The position numbers were made by a program, and so were the translations under genes. Source: Phyllobates terribilis (Eukaryota). Taken from it: 64,000 nt of DNA. The stretch is from NCBI RefSeq assembly GCF_046119375.1, contig NW_027362765.1, positions 391,468,001 to 391,532,000 of the forward strand. Reading direction: 5' to 3'. Shown piece after piece: positions 3,665 to 55,888 of this stretch; the stretch's first letter is position 1, and every line of letters starts with the position of its first letter. The notes beneath the pieces were generated by a model, which saw only the letters and a list, made by a program, of their open reading frames with translations, made no database searches and was not told where the DNA came from.

Positions 3665-5490
3665 TCTGTATGGAATTGTTCAATAAAGGGCCCAAAATTA
3701 AGATAACATAGATGGGAGAGGTCTCTATGAATAGGAATTCCTAAGTATTTGATACCCTGTGAGGGCCAGGCAAAGGGAAAGTTGGACTGGATGGAATCCT
3801 ATATGGATTTAGGGAGGGAGACATCGAGGGCCTCAGACTTCGCTGCATTGATTTTAAAATTTTACCATGTAACAAAGTGATCTATTTCAGCCATAACAGC
3901 AGGGATGGATATATGTGATTGAGTGATATATACTAGGACATCATCAGCAAATAGAGAGCACTTGTACTCGGTGCCTCCCACCTCAATCCACCTAATATTG
4001 GGGTTATGGCGAATTGATGAGAGCAGGTGCTCCGTCACTAGGATGTATAAGAGAGGGGACAGAGGACATCCCTGCCTTGTCCCATTGGTGATTGTGAAAG
4101 GTGATGAAAATGTTCTGACGCACCCCCTGGGCCTTGGGACACCCGGAGCCGGACCCTTTTTGGTGGATGCTGGTGGTTGTAGTCTTCGTGGCGGCGATCC
4201 GGTTCCGTGGCTCAGGGCGGTCAAACCAGTGGCGGAACTATTTATGTGGTTTTGATGTTTAAATGTCCGACTACGCCACCCGTGGATTGCGGTCAGAGTG
4301 AACCGCCGCTACAGGGCAGACCGCTAAGGCTGGTGTTGTGGGTGCAGCAGAGCGTAGCATACCTCCCCACGGGAGGAGTATAGCCTCAGGGCAGTGTATG
4401 CGGAGGATGGGGGTGATGGTGCAGGGCAGCAGCAGTAACGACACGGAGTCAGTGATGCAGTTCAGGGCCTTTACTCACAGTTCTTATTATCCAGACCACG
4501 TCTGCAGGTAACGGCTGCCCACGTCGTACTGTGCTCACCAGGTGAGGGGCTCTGACAACTCCCAGATAACTTTGGAGCGCTTCACAGGACCCCCTTTGTG
4601 TGTCCTTTGTCTGGCCTTTCTTACCAACACTTCTGTCCGGCTGCCTCGGGCCTCCTCTTGGTAAACTTGGCGCCAGTTTCCCTGACCCTATGTGGTGCCT
4701 TCCTAGCGGGTGGAGCAAGGGGCTGCGCCACATAAAATGTCAGAGCCTCCGGTTTCTAGCTGAGGGTCGTTTCCTGCCTCCACTAGTTCGGGGACCGATC
4801 TCCCCCTTTGGCCTGACCCCTCCACGCAGGTGGATTCGGGCGTGCGGTGGCGACTCGCCCGTCCGCACCCCTGGGATCCCTTCATTCCTCGTTCCTGGAG
4901 CCTTCTCCGCTCCTCTTCCTTCCTTCTCCCTCTTGCAGGCCTGGGCCTCTGTTACTAGGCCCGCCTCCGGAGCAGAGCTCATGCAGAGCCCCTGCTCCCT
5001 GCCACTTCTGCTCAGACTTCTCTGCACTGAACTAAGATGGTGCCCACCTTTTATACTCCCTTCTCAATGCACCCAGGAACTGCTTCCTCCCTGCTCCTGC
5101 ACTACAGGGTTCCCCTTCCTCAGTGTTCCCTCCCCCCACTCCAGCCAGGGACAGGGACTGTCGTGCCCATCTCAGGGGCATATTGGTCGCCCTGCCCCAC
5201 GGCAATGTGGTGTAATGCATGCAGGTGTCGGGTCCTGATCCACACTCCATCCTTACCTGAGAGTGAGATATCACACCTCTGGGTGAGGTGCAATACGTCT
5301 GTAGCAACCGAGCCCTCAGGGTGCTACAGTTCCATTTATCTTCAGCCTAGGTGACGTATTGCGATACAGGGCCGTGATTTTGGCTATAAAAGGGTCCCCT
5401 AGACCCCTACCCCAAGCTCTTTAAGAGAATCATATATGGCGTGCCAGGAGACTCTATGGAATGCTTTCTCAGCATCCAACGAGAGTATCT
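3665..5490 (-). pseudogene. L1-clade non-LTR retrotransposon RT fragment, interrupted by a solo LTR
   Basis: Minus-strand LSLDAEKAFHRVSW (about 5480-5440), LKINGT|FSSPFTITNGTRQGCPLSPLLY across the LTR insertion, CSLFADDVLVYI and IKYLGI. Confidence 0.9.
4116..5328 (-). mobile_element. Solo LTR, same superfamily as the LTRs at 20016/23755
   Basis: Reverse complement starts TGTAGCACCCTGAGGGCTCGGTTGCTACA and ends GGGTGCGTCA; TSD GTTC at 4112-4115 and 5329-5332; its removal restores the L1 reading frame. Confidence 0.92.
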
Positions 5491-12509: not shown

Positions 12510-13669
12510 GTACCCCCCCGTCTACGAGTGGCCTCCGGACGCTCAGTACCAGGTTTCTCAGGATAAGAGGTGTGGAATGAACGAACCAACCTGGGGGCGT
12601 TCACCTCTGATGCAGAAAACCCACATCCTCTCTTCTGGACCATAACCCTTCCAGTGCACCAAGTATTGTAGGGAACGATGTTGTAGACGAGAGTCTACAA
12701 TCCTTGAAATCTGAAACTCCAGATTACCATCAAACATTACTGGGGGCGGCAGTAGAGGTGCGGGTTCAAGAGGTTCCACGTATTTCTTGAGGAAGGACCT
12801 GTGGAAAACATTGTGGACCTTAAGGGCCTGAGGAAGCTCAAGATGAAACGCTGCTGGGTTAATGACGGTGGTTATTTTATAGGGACCAATAAACCTAGGT
12901 CCCAGCTTACAAGAAGGAACTTTCAACCTTATATTCTTGGTAGACAACCACACAAAGTCATTCATATTCAGGTCTGGACCTGGCAAGTGTTTTCTGTCAG
13001 CCATGTGTTTATACCTGTCTCCCATGATCTTTCAATTAATCAGAACCCCCCGCCACACCGAGAGATGAAGCAAAACGTTCCTCCTCAGGAACTCCCGAAG
13101 CTCCTCCCTCACTAAAAGTACCAAACTGTGGATGGTAACCGTATGCACCAAAAACATGGACCTGACAGTGGATTCTTGATGGTGATTATTAATGGCAAAT
13201 TCTGCCAGCGGTAAGTAGGATGCCCACTCCTCCTGATTCTTGGAGATGAAACACCTGAGGTAGGTCTCTAAATTCAGATTGACACGCTCGGTCTGTCCAT
13301 TCGACTGAGGATGGAAGGCAGAAGAAAAGGACAGCTGCACCCCCAGTCAAGAACTGAACGCTCTCTAGAACTTGGAAACAAACTGGGTCCCCCGATCTGA
13401 CGCCACATCGGAGGGAACCCCGTGAAGCTTCACAATCTCATTTATAAACACCTGAGCAAGTGTCTTGGCATTTGGAAGTGGAGGTAAAGCGACGAAGTGA
13501 ACCATTTTACTGAACCTATCTACTACCACAAAAGCCACCGTTTTGCCTGCAGAAACTGGTAGGTCACTAATAAAATCCATGGACAAGTGTGTTCATGGCC
13601 TGCTAGGTATAGGTAGCGGAAGAAGAGTACCAGACGGACGGGTATGCGATGCTTTAGCACGCGTGCAAA

Positions 13670-14417
13670 TGTAATGCCAGTGATGCACTACTCTGCCATA
13701 GGTCACACACATGTGGTGTGCGGGTATTACCACTACACTAAGGCAGGAATAAAAGCAAAAGAAAATGTAGTTCGTGATGCCAGGGTGCACTGTATTAACT
13801 TCTGTTTCCTGGTGTGATGGTATGTAGTGCACCCGATTGTTCAGAAAACAGAGAGGCCAATAGGCTACTCATAAGCTTTTCTTGTTGCATACAAACACAG
13901 GTAAATCCAGACAGACGATTCAGTAGAGTTTCAATTTCAATGCAGCAAGCACAGTTACTTTCCAGCATGATAATGCAGATACATAAATGGTGCAGTGATT
14001 CCTAGGTACTATCTTCTGCTTATGTGCACAGTCTATTACAAAGCTGATTGCACCTGAGGCTGTTGTAGTCTCTGATATACACAGGAGATCTGAGTTTCCA
14101 TACCTGCTCCTTCAGCTTCCAGGCAAAGACCAGACACTACACTATAACATGTCTCCTTCTCTCTGGATGCTAAACCCAGGACCTGGTCATGTGGTCTAAC
14201 CATGTGACCTTATTGCCATATATGGAAAGCAGGGCTGGATTGTTAACTCTTTAGTAATCTGATAGCAGAACACAATAGGTACATCACTCTATGCATATAT
14301 AAAACATTCTGTACATTATCTGCAAAGGGGAAAATGAACATTGTGCAAACATAATGAGGTAGCTGCTAGATCTGTTACATCTTAAATGTACATACACATC
14401 AGCTTTGGGGCACCACA
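13670..14417 (-). mobile_element. Solo LTR inserted in the Gypsy integrase region
   Basis: Termini TGTAATGCC...GGGGCACCACA; TSD CAAA at 13666-13669 and 14418-14421; reverse complement begins TGTGGTGCCCC like the related LTRs. Confidence 0.85.
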
Positions 14418-14961
14418 CAAATACTAAAAGCATATACGTGCTCAATCATATCCCGATGCAACCCCGGCCACCAAAAACAACGAGAGAGGAGGTCCGCGGT
14501 TGCCTTACCACCTGGATGACCAGCAAGCACAGTTTGATTTGTTCCTTAATCACTTTGCGGCACAGATTAGATGGCACAAATAACCTTCCTGAAGGGCAGG
14601 AGGCAGGAGCATCCCCCTGAGCCTCCAACACCTCACCCTCCAGTTCAGGAAACAATGCCGAAATGACTAACCCTTTCTGTAATATTGAGGCAGGGGTCTC
14701 ATGGTCATCGCCACCACGGAAGCTCCGAGACAAAGCATCAGCCTTGACATTTTTAACCCCTGGACGAAAAGTGAGAAAAAAAATTGAACCTAGCAAAAAA
14801 CAGGGACCATCTGGCTTGCCTAGGGTTGAGACGTTTAGCTGACTGGAGATATGACAGGTTCCTATGGTCAGTAATAACAGTAATAGGATGGACAGCCCCC
14901 TCCAACCAATGTCGCCATTCTTCGAATGACAATTTGATCACCAAAAGTTCCCTATTACCCA

Positions 14962-15957
14962 TGTGGCACCCCAGAGGGTCTGGTTGCCACAGTGGTATTG
15001 CCTCCCTTAAAAGAGGTAATACCATGTCTGGAGGCAAGCAGGGGTTTCCTGGTCAGGAACATAATACATGCAACACTTCCTGGCTGCAGGCCAGCAAGGG
15101 GAGCTCCTCCCCTTGGCAACTGGATCTGGAGGCGGGGTTAGTTTAGTCAGTGTCGGGGAGTTGAGTTCAAGACATTGAAGAGAGAGGAGCTAGGGACTGG
15201 AGCTGGAGATAGCTCGTCCTAGCTGATCATCACAGAGAACCGGACACCGGAGTCCAAGGCTGTGGGACCCTTCAGGACCAGCAGCGGATAAAGTAGGGCA
15301 GGAGATTGCAGGTCTCCTGGCCCCCATTAGACCCCCGGAGGCTCAGCAGCACCGAGGGACCAGTACCGCCAAGGAGGAGTGAGGCATCCACAAGGCCCGA
15401 GCTGCCAGCCATACAGGTGAGCACAGCACGTTACACTCAGGGACGTGGGCTACAACACAGCTACAAGCAGAATAGCCAAAAGAGTATAGTGAGAACGGCA
15501 GGCCTACAACTCCACCTGTCCAGGGGGACTCTATGCTTGCTCCCAGACTGACCAGACTCTTATCTCTAGCCAGTAGCCAGTACTCCAGTCCAGGCCTGTC
15601 TAATTGCTACCAGTAAAGACCCTGGGACTGCACTATACGGACTCTGTGGTTATTTCTGCACCGCGACACCCTGCACAACCACCATCATCCACACACACTG
15701 CCCTGAAGCTAACTCTTCCTGTGGGGAGTTATACCACCTTTGCTGCTATACCACCGGCTTCAGAGGACTGTTCCGCAGCGGCGCTCTCTATTAACTGCAC
15801 TCCACAGGTGGCGTAGTCGGACATTATATAACCTATATACATCTACTACCCTTGGATTGACCACCTGGGTCACGGACCGGCTCACCGCCACTGTGACTAC
15901 AACCCCCAGCATCTACCGGCCCGGCTCCGGGTACCCCACAGCCCAGGGGGCGCGTCA
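14962..15957 (+). mobile_element. Solo LTR inserted in the Gypsy RNase H region
   Basis: TGTGGCACCCC...GGGGGCGCGTCA; TSD CCCA at 14958-14961 and 15958-15961; splits the motif ERNYDVG|NRELL. Confidence 0.92.
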
Positions 15958-18289
15958 CCCACGTCATAATTCCTCTCAGCTGAAGACAATTTTTTAGAAA
16001 AGAAAGTGCATGGACGCCTTTTACCAGGGGACAGATCAAGAGACAACACAGCCCCAACCCCCACCTCAGATGCATCAACTTCCACAATAAAGGGTTGAGA
16101 AACATCGGGTTGGCTGAGTATAGGTGCCGTGGCAAAACAATTCTTTAAGAAAGAAAAGCATGAAGGGAGAACTCCGATCATTTGGAAAAATCAGAACCCT
16201 TCTTAGTCATGTCAGTAAGGGGTTTCACAATTACTAAGTAATTTTGGAAGAATTTCCTGTAAAAATTAGTAAAGCCCAGAAAATGTTGTAGAGCCTTTAG
16301 GTTCTCGAGGTGGTCCAAATCAAGGACTGCATGGATTTTCTCCGTATCCATCTGAAGATGACAACAAGTACTCCAAAAACTGCACCTCCTGAACAGCAAA
16401 AATTCTATGCCAAACTAGAGAAATGTGTTTGTTATCCCTTAATATCTGTAGCACCTGTATAACATGCCCCCGATGTGTCTAAAAATCAGGTGAGTAAACC
16501 AAAATATAGTCCAGATAGACCACCACAAACCTCCCCACCAAATGATGGAAAATATAATTTATGAAATCCTGAAACACCGCAAGTGCGTTGGTCAAACCGA
16601 AAGGCATAACCAGACTCTCAAAATGCCCCTCAGGGGTATTGAACGTTGTTTTCCATTCATCCCCCTCTCTGATTCTAACCAGATTGTAGGCTCCCCTTAA
16701 ATCCAACTTGGAGAATACCTTAACTCCCACAACCTGGCTGAACAAATTAGGAATCAGAGGAAGAGGGTATGGGTCTCATATGGTAATTTGATTTAATTCC
16801 CGGAATTCTAAACAGGGACGTAGACCGCCATCTTTTTTCTTCACGAAGAAGAACCTTGCTGCCACGGGCGAAGATGAGGGCCTAATGTGTCCCTTCTCCA
16901 GACTTTCCGCAATGAAATCCTTCATGGCTTATCTCTCAGGGCCAGAAAGATTATACAGTCTGGACTTTGGTAGTTTAGCTCCGGGGTTCAGATTATTAGG
17001 ACAGTAATAAGCACGATGAGGAGGCAAATCCTGACACCCCTTCTCAGAAAAAACGTCCTCAAAACCAGACAAAAATGAAGGTAAGGTCTCTGTAGAGACT
17101 GTAGAAAGGGAAATATTTAAGCAGTTCTCAGGGCAGTAATCTCCCCACTCAATGATCTCCCTGGATTGCCAATCCACCAACGGATTATGTTTCACTAATC
17201 AGGGAAGACCCAAAACAATTGGGGTGGGAAGACTGTCCAGGACATAGCAGGGAATTGTCTCACAAACTGGCCCCACCCTCAGTTTTAAACCATGTACAAT
17301 CAGAGTCAGAGCTTTCTGTGCAAGTGACGCTGAGTAGATGGCGAAGATGGGAATGGGCTTAGCTAAAGTACAGCAAGCAAGACGATGAGTTCTCACAAAC
17401 TCAGCATCAGCCATGCTGACTCCAGCTTCACTGTCAACAAATACAGAAATTTTTTCGGTTTTGCTCTCTAGCACCACCTCTGCTCTAAGGACAAACCGGG
17501 AACTGCAGGTTGACGATAAATGCACCCCTTGCTTATCCAACTCCAGACTACCACGGGTTAATAGAGTTTCTCTTTGCTTAGGAATCGAAGGACAGGCCCC
17601 AATAAAATGTAACTTTTTCCCACAAAAAACAATACGCCTTTTTTTTGCAAATCTCCGGGGAAATGGACGATGCATGGGTTCTTCCACCTCCCCCCGTACT
17701 GGTTCACTGCTAGACCGCGCCCCCAGCAAAGGAACATTACCCCGAAAAGAAGGCTCCGGAGAAGGTGGTCTCACCCACCTATCCCGAAGGCGTCTATCAA
17801 CAAGTATAGCCAATGACATGGCAGCCTCCAAGGAAATTGGGGTTTCATACACTGCCAAAGCATCTATCAACTTTTCAGTAAGGCCCTGACAAAATTGGCT
17901 TCTAAGAGCTGGGTCATTCTATTTTGTATTACTTGCCCATCTGTGGAATTCAGAGTTGTACGTCTCCACTGACTGATACCCTTTATGAAGGCAACGCAAC
18001 CTAGACTCAGTCAAGGAGATTCGGTCAGGGTCATCATAAATGATAGCTAGATCCCCAAAAACACCCTCCACAGACTGGAGACACACCGAACCCTGCGGCA
18101 AAGAGAAAGCCCAGGATTGAGGATCTCCTTGCAGCAGTTAGATCACAATTCCCACTCATTGCTCCTTATCTCCAGAGGAGTAAGGACGAAGTTTAAAATA
18201 CAGTTTGCAAGCTTCCTTGAACACAAAAAACTTGCCCCTATCTCCTGAAAACCTGTCCGGGAGGGCAACCTTGGGATCAAGCTGGACCG

Positions 18290-19095: not shown

Positions 19096-20015
19096 CTACA
19101 AGCTTTCCAGTATTGAAATTTGTGTAGATTTATTAGCTGCAAATTGAATTTTTTGGGAAAACTTGTCAAAGTCGACGAATTTGAATTTGAGAAGATCCAG
19201 TCATCTCTAGTGATGGGTACTGTGTCTACAATGAAAACAACAGAGAATACAATTTAATTAAACTAGATCTGATAATGTTCCGCATAGATGGACCCTAAGA
19301 ATCAGGGGAACCCGATTCCCACAAGTCCAAGGAACCCCAGTCCTGTTGCTGCACCTCTACTTTTAGAACAGCATCTTTTCATAAAGGGTGATTGTTGACA
19401 AGGTGAGAAGTCAGCTCAGTAATCATTCCATAAGCTGACACATTCAGAAAATAAATATGTATTGATATATTCAGTGTTCTGTTCACTAATGACCATTGAC
19501 AAGTGGAATCGATATTCATTGGTAGCATGAGGAGCTAAATGCTAATCACGTAATTTTCCAGTAATGGCCGTTATTGACTGTAATGCAGAGAACAATTCTC
19601 CCATACCATCACTATCTCATTAAAGTGGATCTAGCAGGTTTGTTTTTTAACAGGATAGATGGGGGCTGGACTGGGGGGTATATATGGTTATATGGCATTT
19701 GCTATAGTATTGTCAGACCAGTCGCGTAATTTCTTTCAATCTGGTCCCTAAAATGCTGGATTCTTGGCATTGCTTAGTCACTGTTCAGACTCTGTCTGGC
19801 AATAGTAGGTCATAGACTTGTATAATGACAATGATAGCAGCTTTCCCGGTGCATGCACAAAGACAGGTGAAGCATGATGTGAATAAGCCCTTATCACAGT
19901 CTTGTTCTCACTTTCAGCTACTTTCTAATGAAGAAATGTAGAAAGAAGCAGCTAACAAGGAGAATTTTTTTGGACTCTAGCAATGATACTTTATAGACAT
20001 TAATGGTGGTGCATG

Positions 20016-21237
20016 TGTAGCACCCTGAGGATTCGGCTGCTACAGGGGTATTGCACCTCAACCCAGAGGTGTGATATTCCACTCCCGGGTAAGGATGGAG
20101 AGTGGATCTGAGCTCGGTAGGCTGCATGCACTACATACATCCCATTTCCGAGGAACAGGCCGACGGTACTCCCACTTAGAAATGTGCAGGTACGACCGAG
20201 TCTGTTCCTGGCTGGAGTGGGAGGGGGGTGGTACATCCCAAGTAGTGTAGGGGCAGATAGGGGGAGCAGCCTGGGTAAAGTTAGGAGCTCATTGGGTGCT
20301 GGTCACCTGAGCTCACACATAGAGGGATATATAAGGCGGGCACCAACTAGAATCAGGGTCAGACGCAGAGAGTCAGATGCAGAGAGGATCAGCTGCAGAG
20401 AACAAGTCAGGAGAGGAGAGAAGAAAGACCAAGACCCAGAGTGAGAGAGGAGAAAAGAGAAAGACCCAGAGCACAGAAGAGTAGGGACCCAAGAACCCAA
20501 ATCAGAGCACCGGGTGAGGAGTCAGCAAAAGGGTACCGGAACCCAAACTGGTGGGGGTAAAAACAATCCCCAGCCAGAGACCGGAGACCGTGGGCAGTGT
20601 CTGCCACGGTCACCCACCACATTCACCCCGAAGGCACACCACATGAAGGGTCAGGGAACCCAGGGCCAAGGGTGTCCCAACAGAAGGCCCGAGGGAGCTG
20701 GACCTAGGTGGATCACTGGTGGGGACGGCTGAAGAAAGGACAGAGGGAGAGCTCAGGGCCACGCTCCGGACTTGTTTGGGGGTTGGCTGGATCCAGGACC
20801 TGGTGGACGCAGCACGGCTCGGGTGGTCACTAGCAGCTGGAGTGACCAGTACAACATCTGCAGTAAGTAAACACCCTTAACTGCACAACCCGACTCTGTC
20901 TTCACTGCCGTCTGCACTACACCACCACAACCCCCATCCTCTGCGCCTGTCCCCTCTAAGGCTATACCCCTCCCGTTGGGGGTTATTTCACCAAGCTGCG
21001 CACCCACCATCAGCCTCAGCGGACCCTGCTGCAGCGGCGGCCACAGTGACCGCATCACAACGGGTGGCGTAGTCGACACAAAAGAACTTTAGTAACATCT
21101 GTAGAACTGCCACATCACACTGAGCTTGACGCCCTGGGCACGGGACCGGGTCACAGCCGCTCGGAGACTACAAACCCCCATCTGATCCGGTGCCGGGTAT
21201 TCCCCTCAAAAAGGAATATGTCCCAGGGGGCGCGTCA
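20016..21237 (+). repeat. 5' LTR
   Basis: TGTAGCACCC...GGCGCGTCA; near-identical to 23755-24976; TATA-like GATATATAAG near 20325. Confidence 0.95.
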
Positions 21238-23305
21238 GCTTTGGCGTAGTCGGCAGGATTACGTGCCCGCAACAACCGGGTACTGCGTGCCTGAAGAAAA
21301 GTGCAAGTTTACCTCAGAAAGAAGTCTCCTGCCGGTTCCGGAGGGTCCCCGCCATCGGACCCCATCACCAGTCGATTCCAGCCGGTTGTCCGCCATTAAC
21401 AGCGTTTTCCCGCCATCTGCAGAGTTTCCCGCCACTGGGAAGCGATTCCCGCCAAAACCGCAGATTTCCCGCCTTGGAAGAGCAGCGGACGCCATTATGG
21501 GCGTGCCAAAGGGGGGCAGGAGGCCACCTCCCATCGTGGGCCAGGACAGGAAATGGCGCCAAAAGTGGAAACCGCCCCCACCAACAGAGACTGTGATGCT
21601 GGAGGTGTCTGTCAGCGTGAAAGAACTACCCCTGGAGCTGACAGTCACCGAGTTGCCCCGGGACCGCCCTCGAAGTGGGAGGAGACGAAAGAGAAGAGAA
21701 AAGATGGGTGTCGCCTGGAGCAGTCTGGAGCGAGCGCACCCGGAGGCAAGAGGTCTAACGAGGAGTAGCGAAGGAGCTCACCCGGAGATGGAGAGAAAGC
21801 AGAACAGCACCGGCCCGCTGGCCAGGAGTCTGCTAGAGACCGAGGAAGGAGGGCAGAGCAGCACCGGCCCGCTGGCCAGGAGCCTGCCAGAAGAAGAGCA
21901 GAGCAGCACCGACCCGATGGTCAGGAGCCTGCTAGAGTCCACAACCCCGCTAGGTCTAGCGGAGATCTTAGCGCAGCTCCCCCGAGACCGGGAGTGTGCA
22001 CAGACTGCCCTGGAGGGCCTCGCACGGAGGATGGCCCGGGTACAGCGCGAGATACTGGCGGAGTGGAGCCGGGAGATGACCCAGCAAGCTGAGACCAGTC
22101 AACGGAGCACGCTACCCTGGAAGAGGAAGGAGACCGCCTCTGAGGATGGCGCGGGAGGACCCAAGGCCGGAGACGGCGCCGAGAAGGGAGCCGAAGGGGA
22201 CGCCTATACCCCAAGCCGTGACACCGCTTGCCTGCCCCAGCTCCCCGTCGCAGAGCCCGAAAGTCCCCCTGCTGTGCCCGTAGCCGCCATGTCACCGCTA
22301 TGGACTAGGCCCCGACCGGAAGCCGCCGCAGCGACCCCTGTGACGTCACGCGCCTCGACCCGGAGCGTGACAAAGCAGGAAATACCACCAGCCTGGTCGC
22401 AAGGCCTAGTACCCCCGGGCGCCGCATCACCAACAGCGCCCCCTACCTCCGCGGAGCCTCCGGCCTGGCCGCAAGGCCAGGTAGCCCAGGGCGCCGCCGT
22501 CCTAACGGTGCCCTTCACCTTCCAGGTGCCCCAGGCCTGGCCGCAAGGCCTGGGCAACCCGGGCGCCACCACCACCGCGCCCGCGCCCGTAAAACCAAGG
22601 GTGCCACACCTGGGGGAGGACTTGTTCAGCCAGCTCACATGGCCGGACGGGCGGCCCTTCATCTGGCCCGAAGGATACCATGAGCTGGAACGGCAGCAGA
22701 AACTAAGACCCCTGGATGAACCCCTGATTCCGGCTCCGAAGCCCGTGGCACGGATCTCGCCCCCGCTAGCGGAAGCACAGTTTGAGTGGGACCCCACCGG
22801 AGAAGATCTAATGGGGTTCACTCAGGAAACTAGGGCAGCTGCAGCAGAGCGCGCTGAGTGTTGCCGACAGCAGCTCGAAGAGTTCGCGAGGGAGCGGAGA
22901 GAGAGGCGGGTCCGGGAACAACAGGCCCAAATAAGGAGCGCCGAGCAAAAGAGCCGGACCAGGAGGGACCCCCGTGCAGCGCACAGTCCCCGTACCACCA
23001 GGACTGTAATCAAGTTTAACCAACAGCACGGGTGGGGCTTTATCAGAGACAACAACACCCTCGGCGACGTCTTTGTCACGCGCAGAGACGTGGAGTCCCA
23101 TCTGCCGGAGGGGCACAGAGGTCGTGACCTCTACATCGGAGACGAGGTCACTTTCACCCGGCACAAGTGTGCCAAAGGACCTTACGCCCTCCACGTACAC
23201 CGCTTGACGGAGGAGGAGTTGCGGTACGGGGAGGAGGAGCCAGAGGACCCGGATGGGTCTGAAGCAACACCATACCAAGAAAAAGCAGGAGGGAGCCGTC
23301 GTTGA
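21218..23305 (+). CDS. Low-complexity/coiled-coil protein with C-terminal cold-shock domain (695 aa from the first ATG; about 602 aa from the ATG at 21497)
   Basis: Uninterrupted 2.1-kb ORF; 23000-23206 encodes RTVIKFNQQHGWGFIRDNNTLGDVFVTRRDV...LYIGDEVTFTRHKCAKGPYALHV with RNP1-like GWGFI and RNP2-like DVFV, as in CspA/Y-box/Lin28 CSDs. Confidence 0.8.
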   Translation: MSQGARQLWRSRQDYVPATTGYCVPEEKCKFTSERSLLPVPEGPRHRTPSPVDSSRLSAINSVFPPSAEFPATGKRFPPKPQISRLGRAADAIMGVPKGGRRPPPIVGQDRKWRQKWKPPPPTETVMLEVSVSVKELPLELTVTELPRDRPRSGRRRKRREKMGVAWSSLERAHPEARGLTRSSEGAHPEMERKQNSTGPLARSLLETEEGGQSSTGPLARSLPEEEQSSTDPMVRSLLESTTPLGLAEILAQLPRDRECAQTALEGLARRMARVQREILAEWSREMTQQAETSQRSTLPWKRKETASEDGAGGPKAGDGAEKGAEGDAYTPSRDTACLPQLPVAEPESPPAVPVAAMSPLWTRPRPEAAAATPVTSRASTRSVTKQEIPPAWSQGLVPPGAASPTAPPTSAEPPAWPQGQVAQGAAVLTVPFTFQVPQAWPQGLGNPGATTTAPAPVKPRVPHLGEDLFSQLTWPDGRPFIWPEGYHELERQQKLRPLDEPLIPAPKPVARISPPLAEAQFEWDPTGEDLMGFTQETRAAAAERAECCRQQLEEFARERRERRVREQQAQIRSAEQKSRTRRDPRAAHSPRTTRTVIKFNQQHGWGFIRDNNTLGDVFVTRRDVESHLPEGHRGRDLYIGDEVTFTRHKCAKGPYALHVHRLTEEELRYGEEEPEDPDGSEATPYQEKAGGSRR
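21242..21260 (+). promoter_or_regulatory. Primer binding site complementary to the 3' end of tRNA-Ser (AGA/UGA type)
   Basis: TGGCGTAGTCGGCAGGATT, 4 nt after the 5' LTR; complementary to recalled vertebrate tRNA-Ser ...AATCCTGCCGACTACGCCA. Confidence 0.9.
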
Positions 23306-23742
23306 GGACGGGAGTAGAGACTGTATATAGTTGCCCGTCGGGGCACAGTGAACCGTTGCTGCTAAAATAGTCCCCGTTGGGACCAGTGAACTGTTTACCC
23401 GTTAACCCCTTCATCCTACAGGCTGAGGACTGTGAGCAGCCATTCCCTTCCCTCTACCTGGCCGAGGACTGAGAGCGGCCAACTTCCCCTGTAAATAGTT
23501 GCGCGTCCTAAAGCGCCCCCTACCGGTTTTATAGAAAACCTGTTTTTCTAAGAGACTGTCGCACTTTTCCCGGACACACGTTGCACAGTGTCCGGAGGAG
23601 GAACCTGAAACAAGAGACGACGAGAATGTTTATATGAAAAGTTTTATATATATAATGTTTTATATGTTTTATTATGTTTATATGAAAAATTTTGTATGTT
23701 TTGGTGTTTTTGTCTTTACAGCCCGAGGACGTGCTGTGATTT

Positions 23743-23754
23743 ACCAGGGGGGAA
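23743..23754 (+). promoter_or_regulatory. Polypurine tract
   Basis: ACCAGGGGGGAA directly before the TG of the 3' LTR. Confidence 0.85.
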
Positions 23755-24976
23755 TGTAGCACCCTGAGGATTCGGCTGCTACAGGGGTATTGCACCTCAA
23801 CCCAGAGGTGTGATATTCCACTCCCGGGTAAGGATGGAGAGTGGATCTGAGCTCGGTAGGCTGCATGCACTACATACATCCCATTTCCGAGGAACAGGCC
23901 GACGGTACTCCCACTTAGAAATGTGCAGGTACGACCGAGTCTGTTCCTGGCTGGAGTGGGAGGGGGGTGGTACATCCCAAGTAGTGTAGGGGCAGATAGG
24001 GGGAGCAGCCTGGGTAAAGTTAGGAGCTCATTGGGTGCTGGTCACCTGAGCTCACACATAGAGGGATATATAAGGCGGGCACCAACTAGAATCAGGGTCA
24101 GACGCAGAGAGTCAGATGCAGAGAGGATCAGCTGCAGAGAACAAGTCAGGAGAGGAGAGAAGAAAGACCAAGACCCAGAGTGAGAGAGGAGAAAAGAGAA
24201 AGACCCAGAGCACAGAAGAGTAGGGACCCAAGAACCCAAATCAGAGCACCGGGTGAGGAGTCAGCAAAAGGGTACCGGAACCCAAACTGGTGGGGGTAAA
24301 AACAATCCCCAGCCAGAGACCGGAGACCGTGGGCAGTGTCTGCCACGGTCACCCACCACATTCACCCCGAAGGCACACCACATGAAGGGTCAGGGAACCC
24401 AGGGCCAAGGGTGTCCCAACAGAAGGCCCGAGGGAGCTGGACCTAGGTGGATCACTGGTGGGGACGGCTGAAGAAAGGACAGAGGGAGAGCTCAGGGCCA
24501 CGCTCCGGACTTGTTTGGGGGTTGGCTGGATCCAGGACCTGGTGGACGCAGCACGGCTCGGGTGGTCACTAGCAGCTGGAGTGACCAGTACAACATCTGC
24601 AGTAAGTAAACACCCTTAACTGCACAACCCGACTCTGTCTTCACTGCCGTCTGCACTACACCACCACAACCCCCATCCTCTGCGCCTGTCCCCTCTGAGG
24701 CTATACCCCTCCCGTTGGGGGTTATTTCACCAAGCTGCGCACCCACCATCAGCCTCAGCGGACCCTGCTGCAGCGGCGGCCACAGTGACCGCATCACAAC
24801 GGGTGGCGTAGTCGACACAAAAGAACTTTAGTAACATCTGTAGAACTGCCACATCACACTGAGCTTGACGCCCTGGGCACGGGACCGGGTCACAGCCGCT
24901 CAGAGACTACAAACCCCCATCTGATCCGGTGCCGGGTATTCCCCTCAAAAAGGAATATGTCCCAGGGGGCGCGTCA
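23755..24976 (+). repeat. 3' LTR
   Basis: Same length as the 5' LTR; only two substitutions noticed by eye (CTCTAAGG/CTCTGAGG, CTCGGAGA/CTCAGAGA). Confidence 0.95.
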
Positions 24977-25019
24977 CATGCACATAATTAGAAAATAACA
25001 TGATGAGAACAGGCCCTTG

Positions 25020-28678: not shown

Positions 28679-31600
28679 CAGAGGTGCATCTAGGTTTTCT
28701 GGCACCCAGGGCAAGAGTTCATTTTGGCGCACACCCACCTCCCCTATCTCAAGCACATATGAGATTTGCACACTTAGTCATGTGCCGACAAGCGCTCTTC
28801 CTAATTCTCTCAATGTTCAGTAAAAAACTGAAAGAAGCAGAAGAGAAGCTTATTGTCACCTGACGGTAAGTATGAATGAAATGCCCATGTGATGACAGCT
28901 AGAACCAGCAAGCAAAGCTGAATCCTGATAGTAAGGATGTTACACGCTGTTAGGATTGGCTACAGGGCTTCATTTTATAATTATAGGGCTTGTCCAGGTT
29001 TGAGATGAAAGTCTGTAGTCACTCTAGTTGACTGCTGGCTTCTGAATTCTCACAGTGCATACACTGCACACTTTTAGGATTCTTCCTTGCACAAGTATGT
29101 GATTTGTATACTTTGTATGCAAATCGCCAACGCAAGAGTATCCTGACAGCGAGCAGAGTGCACTGAGAGAATTCAGAAGTCTGCAGCCACATAGAATGAC
29201 TGCAGACTCATCAGAAACTTGGACAACCACTTTAATGCTCCTAGAATAATATAAAATATGAGAATTAGTCAGTATCTCTGAAAAACATTTACATCCAGGT
29301 ACCTTATAGATGACGTCGTCTCTGGAGTCGGTCTCTTTCTTTTCTTCTTCATCTTGTCCAGACTCCATGATGACTTTTCTCATCCACATCTCATCTCTGC
29401 AGACTTCCATCTTCTCCGGTCTTCTGCAGCACATCTCCACACGATGCCCTTAAAGATAGCAGTGTCATTATAATGCTCCAGAATAAAACTATCTGTCTTC
29501 AAGTTTCTCCCGTTCCCCATATTCTGCCTGCACCGCTTCCCGTTACACTAAATCTCCCCCATATAGTAAATACCCCCCACACACAGTAAATACCCCCCCA
29601 CACACACAGTAAATACCCCCCCACACACCCAGTAAATACCCCCCCACACAGTAAATACCCCCCACACAGTAAATACCCCCCCACACAGTAAATATTCCCT
29701 CCACACACAGTAAATACCCCCCACACACAGTTAATATTCTCTCCACACACAGTAAATACCCCCCACACACAGTAAATATTCCCTCCACACACAGTAAATA
29801 CCCCCCACACACACAGTAAATACCCCCCACACACAGTTAATATTCTCTCCACACACAGTAAATACCCACCACACACAGTAAATACCCCCACACACAGTAA
29901 ATACCCCCCCACACACACAGTAAATACCCCCCACACACAGTAAATATTCCCTCCACACACAGTAAATACCCCCCACACACAGTAAATACCCCCACACACA
30001 GTTAATATTCTCTCCACACACAGTAAATACCCCCCACACACAGTAAATATTCCCTCCACACACAGTAAATACCCCCCACACACAGTAAATACCCCCCACA
30101 CACAGTAAATATTCCCTCCACACACAGTAAATACCCCCCACACACAGTAAATACCCCCCCCACACAGTTAATATTCTCTCCACACACAGTAAATACCCCC
30201 CCCACACACAGTAAATACCCCCCACACACAGTAAATACCCCCCACACACAGTTAATATTCTCTCCACACACAGTAAATACCCCCCACACACAGTAAATAC
30301 CCCCCACACACAGTAAATACCCCCCACACACAGTTAATATTCTCTCCACACACAGTAAATACCCCCCACACACAGTAAATACCCCCCCCACACAGTTAAT
30401 ATTCTCTCCACACACAGTAAAAAACCCCCACACACAGTAAATACCCCCCCACACACACAGTAAATACCCCCCACACACAGTAAATACCCCCCACACACAG
30501 TTAATATTCTCTCCACACACAGTAAATACCCTCCACACACAGTAAATACCCCCCACCCACAGTAAATACCCCCCACCCACAGTAAATACCCCCCACACAC
30601 AGTTAATATTCTCTCCACACACAGTAAATACCCCCCACACACAGTAAATACCCACCACACACAGTAAATACCCACCACACACAGTAAATACCCCCCACCC
30701 ACAGTAAATACCCCCCAAACACAGTAAATACCCCCCCACACAGTAAATATTCCCTCCACACACAGTAAATACCCCCCACACACAGTAAATATTCCCTCCA
30801 CACACAGTAAATACCCCCCACACACAGTAAATGCCCCCCACACACAGTAAATACCCCCCACACACAGTAAATACCCCCCCACACACACAGTAAATACCCC
30901 CCACACACAGTAAATACCCCCCCACACACACAGTAAATACCCCCCCACACAGTAAATACCCCACACACACAGTAAATACCCCCCCACACACAGTAAATAC
31001 CCCCCCACACACACAGTAAATGCCCCCATACACAGTAAATACCCCCACACACCCAGTAAATACCCCCCCACACAGTAAATACCCCCCACACAGTAAATAC
31101 CCCCCCACACAGTAAATATTCCCTCCACACACAGTAAATACCCCCCACACACAGTTAATATTCTCTCCACACACAGTAAATACCCCCCACACACAGTAAA
31201 TATTCCCTCCACACACAGTAAATACCCCCCACACACACAGTAAATACCCCCCACACACAGTAAATATTCCCTCCACACACAGTAAATACCCCACACACAC
31301 AGTAAATACCCCCCACACACAGTTAATATTCTCTCCACACACAGTAAATACCCACCACACACAGTAAATACCCCCACACACAGTAAATACCCCCCCACAC
31401 ACACAGTAAATACCCCCCACACACAGTAAATATTCCCTCCACACACAGTAAATACCCCCCACACACAGTAAATACCCCCACACACAGTTAATATTCTCTC
31501 CACACACAGTAAATACCCCCCACACACAGTAAATATTCCCTCCACACACAGTAAATACCCCCCACACACAGTAAATACCCCCCACACACAGTAAATATTC

Positions 31601-34600
31601 CCTCCACACACAGTAAATACCCCCCACACACAGTAAATACCCCCCCACACAGTTAATATTCTCTCCACACACAGTAAATACCCCCCCACACACACAGTAA
31701 ATACCCCCCACACACAGTAAATACCCCCCACACACAGTTAATATTCTCTCCACACACAGTAAATACCCCCCACACACAGTAAATACCCCCCACACACAGT
31801 AAATACCCCCCACACACAGTTAATATTCTCTCCACACACAGTAAATACCCCCCACACACAGTAAATACCCCCCCACACAGTTAATATTCTCTCCACACAC
31901 AGTAAAAACCCCCCACACACAGTAAATACCCCCCCACACACACAGTAAATACCCCCCACACACAGTAAATACCCCCCACACACAGTTAATATTCTCTCCA
32001 CACACAGTAAATACCCTCCACACACAGTAAATACCCCCCACCCACAGTAAATACCCCCCACCCACAGTAAATACCCCCCACACACAGTTAATATTCTCTC
32101 CACACACAGTAAATACCCCCCACACACAGTAAATACCCACCACACACAGTAAATACCCCCCACCCACAGTAAATACCCCCCACACACAGTAAATACCCCC
32201 CCACACAGTAAATATTCCCTCCACACACAGTAAATACCCCCCACACACAGTAAATATTCCCTCCACACACAGTAAATACCCCCCACACACAGTAAATGCC
32301 CCCCACACACAGTAAATACCCCCCACACACAGTAAATACCCCCCCACACACACAGTAAATACCCCCCACACACAGTAAATACCCCCCCACACACACAGTA
32401 AATACCCCCCCACACAGTAAATACCCCCCACACACAGTAAATACCCCCCCACACACAGTAAATACCCCCCCACACACAGTAAATACCCCCCCACACACAC
32501 AGTAAATGCCCCCATACACAGTAAATACCCCCACACACACAGTAAATACCCCCCCACACACAGTAAATACCCCCCACACACACAGTAAATACCCCCCCAC
32601 ACAGTAAATATTCCCTCCACACACAGTAAATACCCCCCACACACAGTAAATACCCCCCACACAGTAAATATTCCCTCCACACACAGTAAATACCACCCAC
32701 ACACAGTAAATACCCCCCCACACAGTAAATATTCCCTCCACACACAGTAAATACCCCACACACACAGTAAATACCCCCCCACACACACAGTAAATACCCC
32801 CCCACACACAGTAAATACCCCCCACCCACAGTAAATACCCCCCCACACACACAGTAAATACCCCCCACACACACAGTAAATACCCCCCACACACAGTAAA
32901 TATTCCCTCCACACACAGTAAATACCCCCCACACACAGTAAATACCCCCCACACACAGTTAATATTCTCTCCACACACAGTAAATACCCCCCACCCACAG
33001 TAAATACCCCCCCACACACACAGTAAATACCCCCCACACACACAGTAAATACCCCCCACACACAGTAAATATTCCCTCCACACACAGTAAATACCCACCA
33101 CACACAGTAAATACCCCCCACACACAGTAAATACCCACCACACACAGTAAATACCTCCCACCCACAGTAAATACCCCCCACACACAGTAAATACCCCCCC
33201 ACACAGTAAATATTCCCTCCACACACAGTAAATACCCCCCACACACAGTAAATGCCCCCCACACACAGTAAATACCCCCACACACAGTAAATACCCCCCC
33301 ACACACAGTAAATACCCCCCACACACACAGTAAATACCCCCCCACACACACAGTAAATACCCCCCACACAGTAAATATTCCCTCCACACACAGTAAATAC
33401 CCCCCACACACAGTAAATACCCCCCCAAACACACAGTAAATACCCCCCCACACACAGTAAATACCCCCCCACACACACAGTAAATACCCCCCACACACAG
33501 TAAATATTCCCTCCACACACACAGTAAATACCCCCCACACACACAGTAAATACCCCCCCACACACACAGTAAATACCCCCCCACACACAGTAAATACCCC
33601 CACACACACACAGTAAATACCCCCCACACACAGTAAATACCCCCCACACACACACAGTAAATACCCCCCCCACACACAGTAAATACCCCCCCACACACAC
33701 AGTAAATACCCCCCCACACAGTAAATATTCCCTCCACACACAGTAAATACCCCCCACACACAGTAAATACCCCCCCCACACACAGTAAATACCCCCCCAC
33801 ACACAGGAAATACCCCCCCACACACACAGTAAATACCCCTCACACACAGTAAATATTCCCTCCACACACAGTAAATACCCCCCACACACAGTAAATACCC
33901 ACCACACACAGTAAATACCCCCCACCCACAGTAAATACCCCCCACACACAGTAAATACCCAACACACACAGAAAATACCCCCCACACACAGTAAATACCC
34001 ACCACACACAGTAAATACCCCCCACGCAAAGTAAATACCCCCACACACAGTAAATACCCCCCACACACAGTAAATACCCCCCCACACACAGTAAATACCC
34101 CCCACACACAGTAAATACCCCCCCACACACAGTAAATACCCCCCCACACAGTAAATATTCTCTCCACACACAGTAAATACCCCACAAACACAGTAAATAC
34201 CCACCACCCACAGTAAATACCCCCCACACACAGTAAATACCCACCACACACAGTAAATACCCCCCACGCACAGTAAATACCCCCCACACACAGTAAATAC
34301 CCCACACACACAGTAAATACCCCCCCACACACAGTAAATACCCCCCACACACAGTAAATACCCCCCCACACACAGTAAATACCCCCCACACACAGTAAAT
34401 ACCCCCCCACACACAGTAAATACCCCCCCACACAGTAAATATTCCCTCCACACACAGTAAATACCCCACACACACAGTAAATACCCACCACACACAGTAA
34501 ATACCCCCCACCCACAGTAAATACCCCCCACCCACAGTAAATACCCACCACACACAGTAAATACCCCCCACGTACAGTAAATACCCCCCACACACAGTAA

Positions 34601-36847
34601 ATACCCCACACACACAATAAATACCCACCACACACAGTAAATACCCCCCACCCACAGTAAATACCCCCCATACATAGTAAATACCCCACACAAAGTAAAT
34701 ACCCCCCCACACAGTAACTACCCCCCACACAGTAAATATTCCCTCCACACACAGTAAATACCCCCCACACACAGTAAATACCCCCCACACAGTAAATACC
34801 CACCACACACAGTAAATACCCCCCACCCACAGTAAATACCCCCCCACACACAGTAAATACCCCACACACACAGTAAATACCCCCCCACACAGTAAATACC
34901 CCCCACACAGTAAATACCCCCCCACACACAGTAAATACCCCCCCACACAGTAAATACCCCCCACACACAGTAAATACCCACCACACACAGTAAATACCCC
35001 CCACCCACAGTAAATACCCCCCACACACAGTAAATACCCCCCACGCACAGTAAATACCCCCCACGCACAGTAAATACCCCCCACACACAGTAAATACCCC
35101 CCCACACACAGTAAATACCCCCCACACACAGTAAATACCCCCCCACACAGTAAATATTCTCTCCACACACAGTAAATACCCCACACACACAGTAAATACC
35201 CACCACCCACAGTAAATACCCCCCACACACAGTAAATACCCCCCACGCACAGTAAATACCCCCCACACACAGTAAATACCCCACACACACAGTAAATACC
35301 CCCCACACACAGTAAATACCCCCCCACACACAGTAAATACCCCCCCACACAGTAAATATTCCCTCCACACACAGTAAATACCCCACACACACAGTAAATA
35401 CCCACCACACACAGTAAATACCCCCCACACACAGTAAATACCCACCACACACAGTAAATACCCCCCACGCACAGTAAATACCCCCCACACACAGTAAATA
35501 CCCCACACACACAGTAAATACCCACCACACACAGTAAATACCCCCCACCCACAGTAAATACCCCCCACACATAGTAAATACCCCACACACACAGTAAATA
35601 CCCCCCCACACAGTAACTACCCCCCACACAGTAAATATTCCCTCCACACACAGTAAATACCCCCCACACACAGTAAATACCCCCCACACAGTAAATACCC
35701 ACCACACACAGTAAATACCCCCCACCCACAGTAAATACCCCCCCACACACAGTAAATACCCCCCACACACAGTAAATACCCCCCACACACAGTAAATACC
35801 CCCCCACACAGTAAATACCCCCCCACACACAGTAAATACCCCCCCACACAGAGTCAATACCCCCCACACACAGTAAATACCCCCCACATACAGTAAATAC
35901 CCCACACACACAGTAAATACCCACCACACACAGTAAATACCCCCCACCCACAGTAAATACCCCCCACACACAGTAAATACCCCACACACACAGTAAATAC
36001 CCCACACACACAGTAAATACCCACCACACACAGTAAATACCCCCCACCCACAGTAAATACCCCCCACACACAGTAAATACCCCACACACACAGTAAATAC
36101 CCCCCCACACAGTAAATACCCCCCACACAGTAAATATTCCCTCCACACACAGTAAATACCCCACACACAGAGTCAATACCCCCCACACACAGTAAATACC
36201 CCCCACATACAGTAAATACCCCCCCACACAGTAAATACCCCCCCCACACAGTAAATACCCACCACACACAGTAAATACCCCCCACACACAGTAAATACCC
36301 CCCCCACACAGTAAATACCCCCCCACACAGTAAATACCCCCCCCACACAGTAAATACCCACCACCCACAGTAAATACCCCCCACACACAGTAAATACCCA
36401 CCACACACAGTAAATACCCCCCCACACAGTAAATACCCCCCACACACAGTAAATACCCCCCACACACAGTAAATACCCCCCCAGCCCCCTGTTAAATTTA
36501 ATCTTCAGTGTCTTCAGCTCCACTAATATTGAGCACTTTCCCCAATCTTCAGGGCGCTGGCGAGTGATGTCAGCAGCGTGATTACATGTCCTGATCACGC
36601 TGCTGCCATCGCTCTGACCCGGCGGTCAAAGCTTCATTTTTACTCACGTCTGTCGGACACAAATCCAATTGAACGCTGGAAGCCGGCGCACTGCTCGTTC
36701 TGTGAGCTGGCTCAGAGAACAGGCGACTCCCAATCCGAGGGGCGGCAAAATGCAGCTGGCGGCGGAGGCACTTCGGACCACCACAGTAGGCGGCCCTACT
36801 GCTCCCGGGGCACATGACCCGGCTGCCCCCACCTAGATACGCCTCTG
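28679..36847. mobile_element. 8.2-kb non-autonomous hAT element dominated by an internal minisatellite
   Basis: TIRs CAGAGGTGCATCTAGG / CCTAGATACGCCTCTG and perfect 8-bp TSD CATGGACA (28671-28678, 36848-36855); no transposase. Confidence 0.9.
29565..36481. repeat. 6.9-kb minisatellite, 18-23 bp unit
   Basis: Consensus CACACAGTAAATACCCCC(C) with variants AGTTAATATTCTCTCC and AGTAAATATTCCCTCC. Confidence 0.98.
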
Positions 36848-44031: not shown

Positions 44032-45681
44032 CAGTCATATGAAAAAGTTTGGGCACCCCTATTAATCTTAAGCTTAATGTTTTATAAAAATTGGTGTTTT
44101 TGCAACAGCTATTTCAGTTTGATATATGTAATAACTGTTGGACACAGTAATGTTTCTGCCTTGAAATGAGGTTTATTGTACTAACAGAAAATGTGCAATC
44201 TACATTCAAACAAAATTTGAAAGGTGCATAAGTATGGGCACCCTTATCATTTTCTTGTTTTAAATACTCCTACCTACTTTTTACTGACTTACTAAAGCAC
44301 TTTTTTTGGTTTTGTAACCTCATGGAGCTTTGAACTTTATAGCCAGGTGTATGCAATCATGAGAAAAGCTACTTAAAGTGGCCACTTGCAAGTTGTTCTC
44401 CTGTTTGAATCTCCTCTGAAGAGTGGCATCATGTGCTCCTCAAAACAACTGTCAAATGATCTGAAAACAAAGATTATTCAACATAGTTGTTCAGGGGAAG
44501 CATACAAAAAGCTGTCTCAGAGATTTAACCTGTCAGTTTCCACTGTGAGGAACATAGTAAGGAAATGGAAGAACACAGGGACAGTTCTTGTTAGGGCCAG
44601 AAGTGGCAGGCCAAGAAAAACATCAGAAAGGCAGAGAAGAAGAATGGTGAGATCAGTCAAGGACAATCCTCAGACCACCTCCAGAGAGCTGCAGCATCAA
44701 CTTGCTGCAGATGGTGTCACTGTGCATCGGTCAACTATACAAGGCACTTTGCACAAGGAGAAGCTGTATGGGAGAGTGATGCGAAAGAAGCCGTTTCTGC
44801 AAGCACGCCACAAACAGAGTTGGCTGAGGTATGCAAAAGCACATTTGGAGAAGCCAATTTCTTTTTGGAAGAAGGTCCTGTGGACTGATGAAATCAAGAT
44901 TGAGTTATTTGGTCATACAAAAAGGCGTTATGCATGGTGGCAAAAAAACACAGCATTCCAAGAAAAACACTTGCTACCCACAGTAAAATTTGGTGGAGGT
45001 TCCATCATGCTTTGGGGCTGTGTGGTCAATGCTGGCACTGGGAATCTTGTTAAAGTTGAGGGACGCATGGATTCCACTCAGTATCAGCAGATTCTTGACA
45101 ATAGTGTTCAAGAATCAGTGATAAATATGAAGTTACAAAGTGGATGGATCTTTCAGCAAGACAATGATCCAAAACACCGCTCCAAATCTACTCAGGCATT
45201 CATGCAGAGGAACAACTACAATGTTCTGGAATGGCCATCCCAGTCCCCAGACCTGAATATCATTGAACATCTGTGGGATCATTTGAAGAGGGCTGTCCAT
45301 GCTCGGCGACCATCAAACTTAACTGAACTGGAATTGTTTTGTAAAGAGGAATGGTCAAAAATACCTTCATCCAGGATCCAGGAACTCATTAAAAGCTACA
45401 GGAAGCGACTAGAGGCTGTTATTTTTGCAAAAGGAGGATCTACTAACTATTAATGTCACTTTTCTGGTGAGGTGCCCATACTTATGCACCTGTCAAATTT
45501 TGTTTGAATGCAGATTGCACATTTTCTGTTAGTACAATGAACCTCATTTCAAGGCAGAAACATTACTGTATCCAACAGTTATTACATATATCAAACTGAA
45601 ATAGCTGTTGCAAAAACACCAATTTTTATAGAACATTAAGCTTAAGATTAATAGGGGTGCCCAAACTTTTTCATATGACTG
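44032..45681 (+). mobile_element. Full-length IR/DR-type Tc1 element (1650 bp)
   Basis: About 210-bp TIRs beginning CAGTCATATGAAAAAGTTTGGGCACCCC, inner repeat GGTGCATAAGTATGGGCACC, TA on both sides. Confidence 0.95.
44431..45453 (+). CDS. Tc1-family DD34E transposase, 340 aa, ORF uninterrupted
   Basis: ATG at 44431; GRPRK linker, WTDE, FQQDNDPKH, SPDLNIIE with 34 residues counted between the second D and E. Confidence 0.92.
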   Translation: MCSSKQLSNDLKTKIIQHSCSGEAYKKLSQRFNLSVSTVRNIVRKWKNTGTVLVRARSGRPRKTSERQRRRMVRSVKDNPQTTSRELQHQLAADGVTVHRSTIQGTLHKEKLYGRVMRKKPFLQARHKQSWLRYAKAHLEKPISFWKKVLWTDEIKIELFGHTKRRYAWWQKNTAFQEKHLLPTVKFGGGSIMLWGCVVNAGTGNLVKVEGRMDSTQYQQILDNSVQESVINMKLQSGWIFQQDNDPKHRSKSTQAFMQRNNYNVLEWPSQSPDLNIIEHLWDHLKRAVHARRPSNLTELELFCKEEWSKIPSSRIQELIKSYRKRLEAVIFAKGGSTNY

Positions 45682-55848: not shown

Positions 55849-55888
55849 AGGATAGACGTGTGCTTGAGAGCTCTCAGCAGGCGGAGGC

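Follow-up and report, generated by a model that had tools for sequence, protein, structure and literature searches.

What keeps the only gene of a retrotransposon intact when that gene is neither gag nor pol, and what would it do for the element that carries it? The question is raised by an element at positions 20016 to 24976 of a 64,000-nucleotide stretch of the Phyllobates terribilis genome (NCBI RefSeq assembly GCF_046119375.1, contig NW_027362765.1, forward-strand positions 391,468,001 to 391,532,000), here called the window, whose numbering is used throughout. A first reading made from the letters alone (the sequence-only reading) had described it as a non-autonomous long terminal repeat (LTR) element whose single open reading frame (ORF) ends in a segment resembling a cold-shock domain (CSD). 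We show here that the element belongs to a family of about 20,000 copies and that its protein is under strong purifying selection. In the reading that we prefer, to which we give a probability of roughly 0.5, an element without gag and pol is copied in trans, and its CSD protein would bind its own RNA and thereby favour the survival and packaging of that RNA.

The CSD-like segment proved to be a true cold-shock domain, both by a Pfam match above the cut-off and by a five-stranded fold model. PF00313 matched the entire frame with an E-value of 2.7e-7 and the C-terminal piece with 8.6e-9, at 30.8-35.6 bits against a curated cut-off of 27, and was matched in 28/28 family members. The AlphaFold model of the domain (22997-23212, plus strand) is a five-stranded oligonucleotide-binding (OB) barrel with a predicted local distance difference test score (pLDDT) of 83. 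When this model was submitted to Foldseek, CspA was matched with a template-modelling (TM) score of 0.84-0.88 and YBX1/2 with about 0.75.

The size of the family was determined in the host genome of 10.5 Gb. The family-specific junction between the polypurine tract and the LTR occurs 20,167 times as an exact match genome-wide and 0 times in a reversed control, so the family is not a product of chance. All 20 close copies that were fetched show the short 5-kb layout. For a less biased view, 60 elements were sampled from the first chromosome-1 matches of a pattern combining LTR end and primer site, which has 22,259 matches in the genome; 47 of them belong to the CSD family, 11 carry gag or gag-pol and 2 are of other kinds. 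Junctions without a matching primer-site pattern likewise belong to elements with a short ORF interior that lack gag-pol themselves (15/15). The LTR divergence has a median of 0.16% and a maximum of 0.9% (n=50 copies with both LTRs), and 4-bp target duplications are present in 44/50 copies. At these 44 insertion sites a palindromic target preference, T(29)G(27)-nnnn-C(33)A(34), surrounds the duplication. The window itself contains a solo LTR of a sister subfamily at 4116-5328 on the minus strand (1213 bp, 4-bp duplication GAAC).

An ORF that is disrupted or drifts neutrally in most copies, a doubt raised with the sequence-only reading together with the proposal to measure the ratio of non-synonymous to synonymous change (dN/dS) across copies, was not what we found. 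The frame is open from the ATG to the CSD in 34 of the 47 sampled family members. A codon model was applied to 35 open copies with a mean identity of 84% (minimum 68%), after 13 broken or deleted copies had been dropped. The dN/dS was 0.29 for the overall ORF and 0.054 for the CSD, where the log-likelihood gain over neutrality was 199 and the codon positions 1, 2 and 3 differed at 0.060, 0.051 and 0.300. Intermediate values were obtained for residues 421-500 (0.15) and 151-205 (0.22), the regions of two predicted helices, and the linker and middle (residues 206-420) reached 0.50, with many indels in the middle. The low value of the CSD and the open frames together show that the protein is selected. 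It could be argued that the CSD is a passively captured fragment, its frame kept open only to evade nonsense-mediated decay, and CSDs have indeed been picked up several times by bird endogenous retroviruses (ERVs), according to the accessible text of PMC12287698. Openness alone cannot yield 0.054 in the CSD next to 0.5 in the linker, however, and the domain is conserved among genera and among families whose LTRs are unrelated, which leaves this explanation scarcely credible.

Within the CSD, the ratio of polymorphisms (pN/pS) was 0.05 for changes common to several copies and 0.19 for singletons. The constraint is therefore strongest on changes that several copies have in common, and selection acts during propagation. 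This bears on domestication, where the protein would serve the frog and selection would act at a few fixed loci. Zebrafish development needs the Gag of Bhikhari (PMC13269885) and xretpos RNA alters Xenopus patterning (PMC4585706), as far as the accessible parts of these sources report, but the copies here are dispersed and very young, and their constraint is of the propagation type. We regard domestication as quite improbable.

The ORF was then analysed along its length. A single stop-free frame of 751 codons (21050-23305) begins within the 5' LTR. From the conserved ATG at 21497, the first one past the primer site and present with its context in 44/60 sampled elements, it encodes 602 amino acids (21497-23305, plus strand, as for the following parts); a second in-frame ATG is at 21704. 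The interior had been described as nearly filled by the ORF. The single stop-free frame was recovered, but the likely 602-residue protein accounts for 72% of the 2517-nt interior. ST(G/D)P(L/M)(A/V)RSL repeats at 21806-21931 vary in number among family copies; of three STGPLARSL copies reported earlier two are exact and the third is a variant. A predicted long helix (residues 165-203, 21989-22105) precedes a Pro/Ala-rich middle, predicted to be disordered, with the PxAWxQG repeats (22385-22549), which occur three times as stated. A second, charged long helix (residues 446-490, 22832-22966) leads into the CSD, and by its sequence the protein ends in an acidic tail with a basic GGxRR terminus (23213-23302). 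Both helices were predicted by AlphaFold; two coiled coils had been claimed before, and the first helix is a possible coiled coil.

The ORF might be a gag that has diverged beyond recognition and in which the CSD acts as nucleocapsid; it follows the primer site, where a gag would lie, and has a nucleic-acid-binding domain near the C-terminus. Such an element would form its own particle and borrow only Pol, comparable to Xenopus 1a11 or zebrafish Bhikhari, and gag-only elements do exist in frogs and fish (PMC4585706, PMC13269885, in their accessible text). A Pfam scan of the window ORF gave no gag or pol family and the CSD as the sole significant match, in line with the lack of gag and pol noted earlier. 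No capsid family was matched in 28/28 members and none in the PDB, and the profile comparison with the Gag of the candidate helper described below returned a probability of 0.2%. The full-length AlphaFold model is largely disordered, with two isolated long helices and no capsid bundle, a weak argument at a mean pLDDT of 50. In addition, the middle evolves at a dN/dS of 0.5 with many indels, and the related families have only the CSD in common. The suspicion that the N-terminal region is a diverged gag was thus not borne out by profile comparison, Pfam, PDB or model, and a gag origin is improbable.

The window element is structurally an LTR retrotransposon, with an LTR pair, a target duplication, a primer site and a polypurine tract, and all the cis signals that had been called intact were found. 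The 5' LTR (20016-21237) and the 3' LTR (23755-24976), both on the plus strand and 1222 bp long, have TG...CA ends and 2 mismatches over 1222 bp. They are flanked by matching, unstranded CATG duplications at 20012-20015 on the left and 24977-24980 on the right. The 5' LTR contains a TATA-like box at 20328 and an AGTAAA poly(A)-like signal at 20866, both with presumed roles. The primer-binding site of 19 nt (21242-21260, plus strand) is complementary to the CCA and the 3' end of host tRNA-Ser genes, and the polypurine tract (23746-23754, plus strand) lies directly before the 3' LTR. The host tRNA pattern had 36 matches, 26 of which were scanned and 6 of these called tRNA-Ser; two uncalled matches were inspected and resemble related elements whose primer sites are longer. 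A second tRNA-Ser primer-like motif at 21065 and 24804 lies inside the U5 of the CSD family and of the candidate helper alike, about 165 nt upstream of the LTR end. The motif is also found at 15809 and may there mark another related LTR remnant.

A search for gag-pol elements with these LTRs, as the sequence-only reading had advised, led to a family under the same LTR-end and primer pattern. Its Gag is PNMA-like (PF14893, E about 1e-5 in 3/3 Gags), a CCHC zinc knuckle was found in 1/3 Gags scanned, and the domain order is protease, reverse transcriptase (RT), RNase H and integrase in L082, L086 and L100. It has 6,513 tract-LTR junctions, against 20,167 for the CSD family, and 4-bp target duplications in 4/5 copies. 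The window element and these elements have in common the last 280 nt of the LTR, corresponding to the putative U5 (20956-21237, plus strand; 70-76% identity), the primer site, a leader with four repeats (T(T/C)CCCGCCA at 21346-21454, plus strand, in the window) and a similar polypurine tract. About 60 nt from the LTR end, including the primer site, are 92-95% identical. No coding homology was detected between the window ORF and the helper, and no CSD was found in 11 helper interiors (0/11). This family is likely the helper of the CSD family, judging from the parts that the two have in common. With no gag or pol of its own and a plausible helper of matching U5, primer site and 4-bp duplication, the element is very probably non-autonomous, as first proposed, and mobilised in trans.

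Exchange between the two families was observed in individual copies. The U3 separates them cleanly (0.82-0.98 within, about 0.5 between) and the U5 does not. L129 has a family U3, yet its U5 is 93-95% identical to helpers, and the U5 of L103, an open family copy, is 85% identical to helper L131 and 73% to the window copy. L088, L129 and L130 are mosaics in which a helper leader is joined to family 3' sequence. In L129 and L130 the two LTRs are nearly identical and target duplications are present, so both moved as mosaics. Such mosaics are consistent with the expectation of template switching between co-packaged RNAs.

As to its lineage, the helper was compared with known Ty3/Gypsy elements. 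Gmr1-like Gypsy elements are defined by an integrase upstream of RT (PMC4131045) and were ruled out as helper by the domain order in L082, L086 and L100. The helper has LTRs of about 1 kb, a gag of about 350 codons and a pol of about 1450 codons, and in these sizes, as in its PNMA-like Gag and domain order, it resembles Barthez1/2, whose lineage of Ty3/Gypsy elements is described as the source of the PNMA genes in the accessible text of PMC3670739 and PMC11117352. The helper fits the Barthez lineage, a placement by Gag Pfam family and size and not by an RT tree; the window element, in contrast, has no coding homology to this lineage.

How might the CSD protein act in such a system? The LTR would transcribe the genomic RNA, from which the ORF would be translated. 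Contigs of four sequencing runs, two of them presumed to be RNA and two of unspecified kind, cover the element and neighbouring repeats, where transcription is inseparable from high-copy DNA. The new protein may then coat its own parent RNA via the CSD, giving a cis preference, and the long helices and disordered middle would likely serve oligomerisation. The RNA could enter helper particles through the common U5, primer site and leader, where the repeats are a candidate packaging signal. The helper RT would prime on tRNA-Ser, and the helper integrase would yield the 4-bp duplication. A benefit in cis or within the same cell is needed because the protein stays conserved, and has not decayed, in a passenger of 20,000 copies. 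Since selection acts on copy lineages, we infer that the protein must benefit its own encoding RNA, or at least the few loci that fire in a given cell. As an analogy only, host YB-1 promotes the RNA metabolism of HIV and the yield of virions (PMC6040738, in its accessible part). A replacement of the nucleocapsid by the CSD protein, suggested before, has lost ground and is unlikely, given that the Gag of the candidate helper brings its own zinc knuckle, seen in the one Gag mentioned above. For the cis RNA-chaperone role overall we see about even odds.

The protein of a trans-mobilised element could also be directed at the host, blunting silencing by small RNAs or RNA decay, or competing with Y-box proteins for the storage of maternal mRNA, wherever the element is expressed. 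The purifying selection would look the same, the RNA-binding face differs from that of YBX1 and CspA, and Gypsy RNA is abundant in poison-frog ova according to the accessible text of PMC6278860. A diffusible suppressor, however, would aid dead copies and the helper equally and should decay unless few loci fire per cell. Helpers also face the same silencing, yet none of the 11 helper interiors carries a CSD. We consider a host-directed role, the chief alternative to the cis reading, unlikely, while giving it some weight.

Several observations weigh against the cis reading or narrow it. The dN/dS values were computed on open-ORF copies only, the 13 broken or deleted ones having been dropped, and purifying selection fits cis RNA-chaperoning and anti-silencing alike. 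Residues 1-69 evolve near neutrally (dN/dS 0.68), so the true start may be the ATG at 21704, which is present in only 24/44 copies. In the domain itself, the Trp of the first strand, a canonical RNA-stacking position, is replaced, most frequently by K, H or Y in 17 diverse element CSDs, and the RNP2 His, another such position, is retained in just 2/17. With these two positions mostly changed, the domain may bind weakly or prefer another ligand. On the side of the helper, the L242 hybrid consists of a helper-type LTR, a family interior and a family LTR. DNA-level recombination in the common U5 can therefore make mosaics too, and for this reason the helper status is likely rather than demonstrated. 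The window U5 is, moreover, just 70-76% identical to the sampled helpers, too little to assign it to one exact helper subfamily.

The remaining features of the RNA-binding face are better preserved. The RNP1 and RNP2 aromatics are retained in 16-17 of the 17 CSDs, and an additional aromatic residue in the last strand is invariant among the element CSDs compared. Nucleic-acid binding by the element CSD is thus plausible from its residues, and the specificity may differ. Relative to YBX1/2 and CspA, the element domain has the same fold, 30-35% identity and the RNP1/RNP2 aromatics, but it is without the first-strand Trp, has mostly lost the RNP2 His, has gained the last-strand aromatic and is set in other flanks. 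The window copy deviates from 15/17 relatives at 23000, a near-invariant first-strand position, and for this reason its own CSD may be impaired.

The origin of the CSD was approached by profile comparison and by a tree. Against solved structures, the element CSD profile matched YBX1 best (E 1.8e-13), narrowly ahead of CspA (2.4e-12), and the loop after RNP2 has the Y-box length in CSD types A, C and D (3/4 types). In a tree of 69 columns, five Y-box-like rows group as a clade that excludes the elements. The approximately unbiased (AU) test on these columns rejected neither the elements plus Y-box as one clade (p=0.37) nor a single element clade (p=0.48), and a single origin of all element CSDs was obtained in 56% of the bootstrap trees. 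The earlier link to Y-box proteins thus stands as far as YBX1 is the top solved match by a small margin, but the tree does not place the elements within the Y-box proteins. A Y-box origin is a lead only, and no donor is resolved by the tree. A search for a host YBX gene with a degraded Y-box-like copy as query recovered that copy alone, and a viral fold search with the CSD gave generic phage and giant-virus CSDs only.

Other CSD families were found in the same genome. When the genome was searched with the CSD family, 33,380 candidates were obtained, of which 150 were scored, and the divergent ones led to sister subfamilies of the CSD family, down to 38% identity, and to two separate families. 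Families B (L221-L230, L237-L240) and C (L233-L236) have LTRs unrelated to those of the window and the same tRNA-Ser primer site. They carry no gag or pol, mostly have 4-bp duplications, and contain a single ORF in which a charged helix precedes the CSD. Their CSDs are 30-39% identical to that of the window family, and the CSD is the only part alignable between families A, B and C. The B/C primer pattern has 538 matches, and all 30 inspected matched B or C ORFs. A fourth CSD type, D, at L171:3727-4623 (minus strand) and L231, retains the RNP2 His. Head-to-tail arrays with common LTRs occur in families A and B (L050, L221 and G000:C1:31095135-31101354). Intronless multi-CSD copies at L141-L146 (G000:C1:734.44 Mb) are presumably CSDE1/Unr retrocopies, and L161 is a degraded copy that we take to be Y-box-like.

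Relatives have been annotated, as uncharacterised proteins, in Phyllobates, Ranitomeya and Anomaloglossus, so the CSD-element group spans several poison-frog genera. Protein database searches returned close relatives from poison frogs only, a range that is not bounded by this result because repeats are usually masked in annotation. A profile search of 1.8 billion proteins was dominated by multi-CSD proteins, a metagenome scan gave no relatives, and an Atlas search gave generic CSD leads only, all under 0.9. In one database model of R3HCC1 (P0002) the first 130 or so residues are those of a family-A-like CSD protein, owing either to a chimera made in gene prediction or to exonisation of an element.

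Pol-less LTR elements are known from other lineages. Zebrafish Bhikhari-1/-2 lack pol, and we know of no CSD cargo in the Dasheng/RIRE2 pair of rice or the SNARE (SARE/SNRE) pair of soybean, which unlike our family belong to plants. In these plant pairs, as here, a pol-less partner is amplified by the enzymes of a helper, with exchange of LTR parts (PMC3701649, accessible text). Bhikhari resembles our family as a vertebrate LTR element whose protein matters in embryos, but that protein is an ERV Gag (PMC13269885, likewise), and the window ORF has no detectable Gag homology. Closer in host are 1a11, xretpos(L) and lambda-olt 2-1 of Xenopus laevis, pol-less frog LTR elements with a coding interior, transcribed in the early embryo. 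They are set apart by their description, in which 1a11 is Gag-like, xretpos is primed by tRNA-Arg and the copies number tens to hundreds, and in the accessible text of that source the word 'cold' is absent (PMC4585706). In birds, 46 ERVs are reported to carry PF00313 after several independent captures, which the authors call possibly adaptive (PMC12287698, in its accessible part). Those are retroviruses classed by RT; here a Ty3/Gypsy-type element without gag and pol has the CSD protein as its sole gene, with about 20,000 copies and selection measured. In the literature searched, outside of which lay Repbase/Dfam, supplements and subscription journals, we found no account of a Ty3/Gypsy-type family that lacks both gag and pol and carries a CSD gene under selection, and the main text of the poison-frog genome papers examined held no relevant mention of 'cold'. 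CSD capture by retroelements is therefore already known, and the pol-less form with a selected CSD seems to be new.

The window contains further repeats, three of them labelled from their translations: broken chromodomain-type Gypsy pieces at 12558-17918 (minus strand), a Tc1-like transposase frame of 358 codons at 44377-45453 (plus strand) and an L1/Tx1-like long interspersed nuclear element at 55868-61810 (plus strand). A 7-kb minisatellite of 20-22-bp units occupies 29499-36500.

Non-autonomous LTR elements are usually viewed as decaying passengers, whereas here a gene other than gag and pol is under constraint of the strength seen in core enzymes. The family gives an identity to a part of the large LTR fraction labelled 'unknown' in poison-frog genomes, amounting to about 1% of the present genome as inferred from the junction count times 5 kb, and it gives rise to spurious gene models named 'CSD domain-containing protein'. 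The passenger outnumbers its likely helper three to one, which opens a long-standing question to testing, namely how a passenger gets packaged and persists in the germline in competition with its helper. Tentatively, and with somewhat less confidence than we have in the cis role itself, the CSD elements of poison frogs may be an old, diversified class of satellite LTR elements that dropped gag and pol, evolved an RNA-binding gene of their own and, by a cis claim on their RNA, out-compete the helper about 3:1 for particles, amounting to about 100 Mb of a 10-Gb genome. If true, they would be to retrotransposons what satellite viruses with an accessory protein gene of their own are to viruses.

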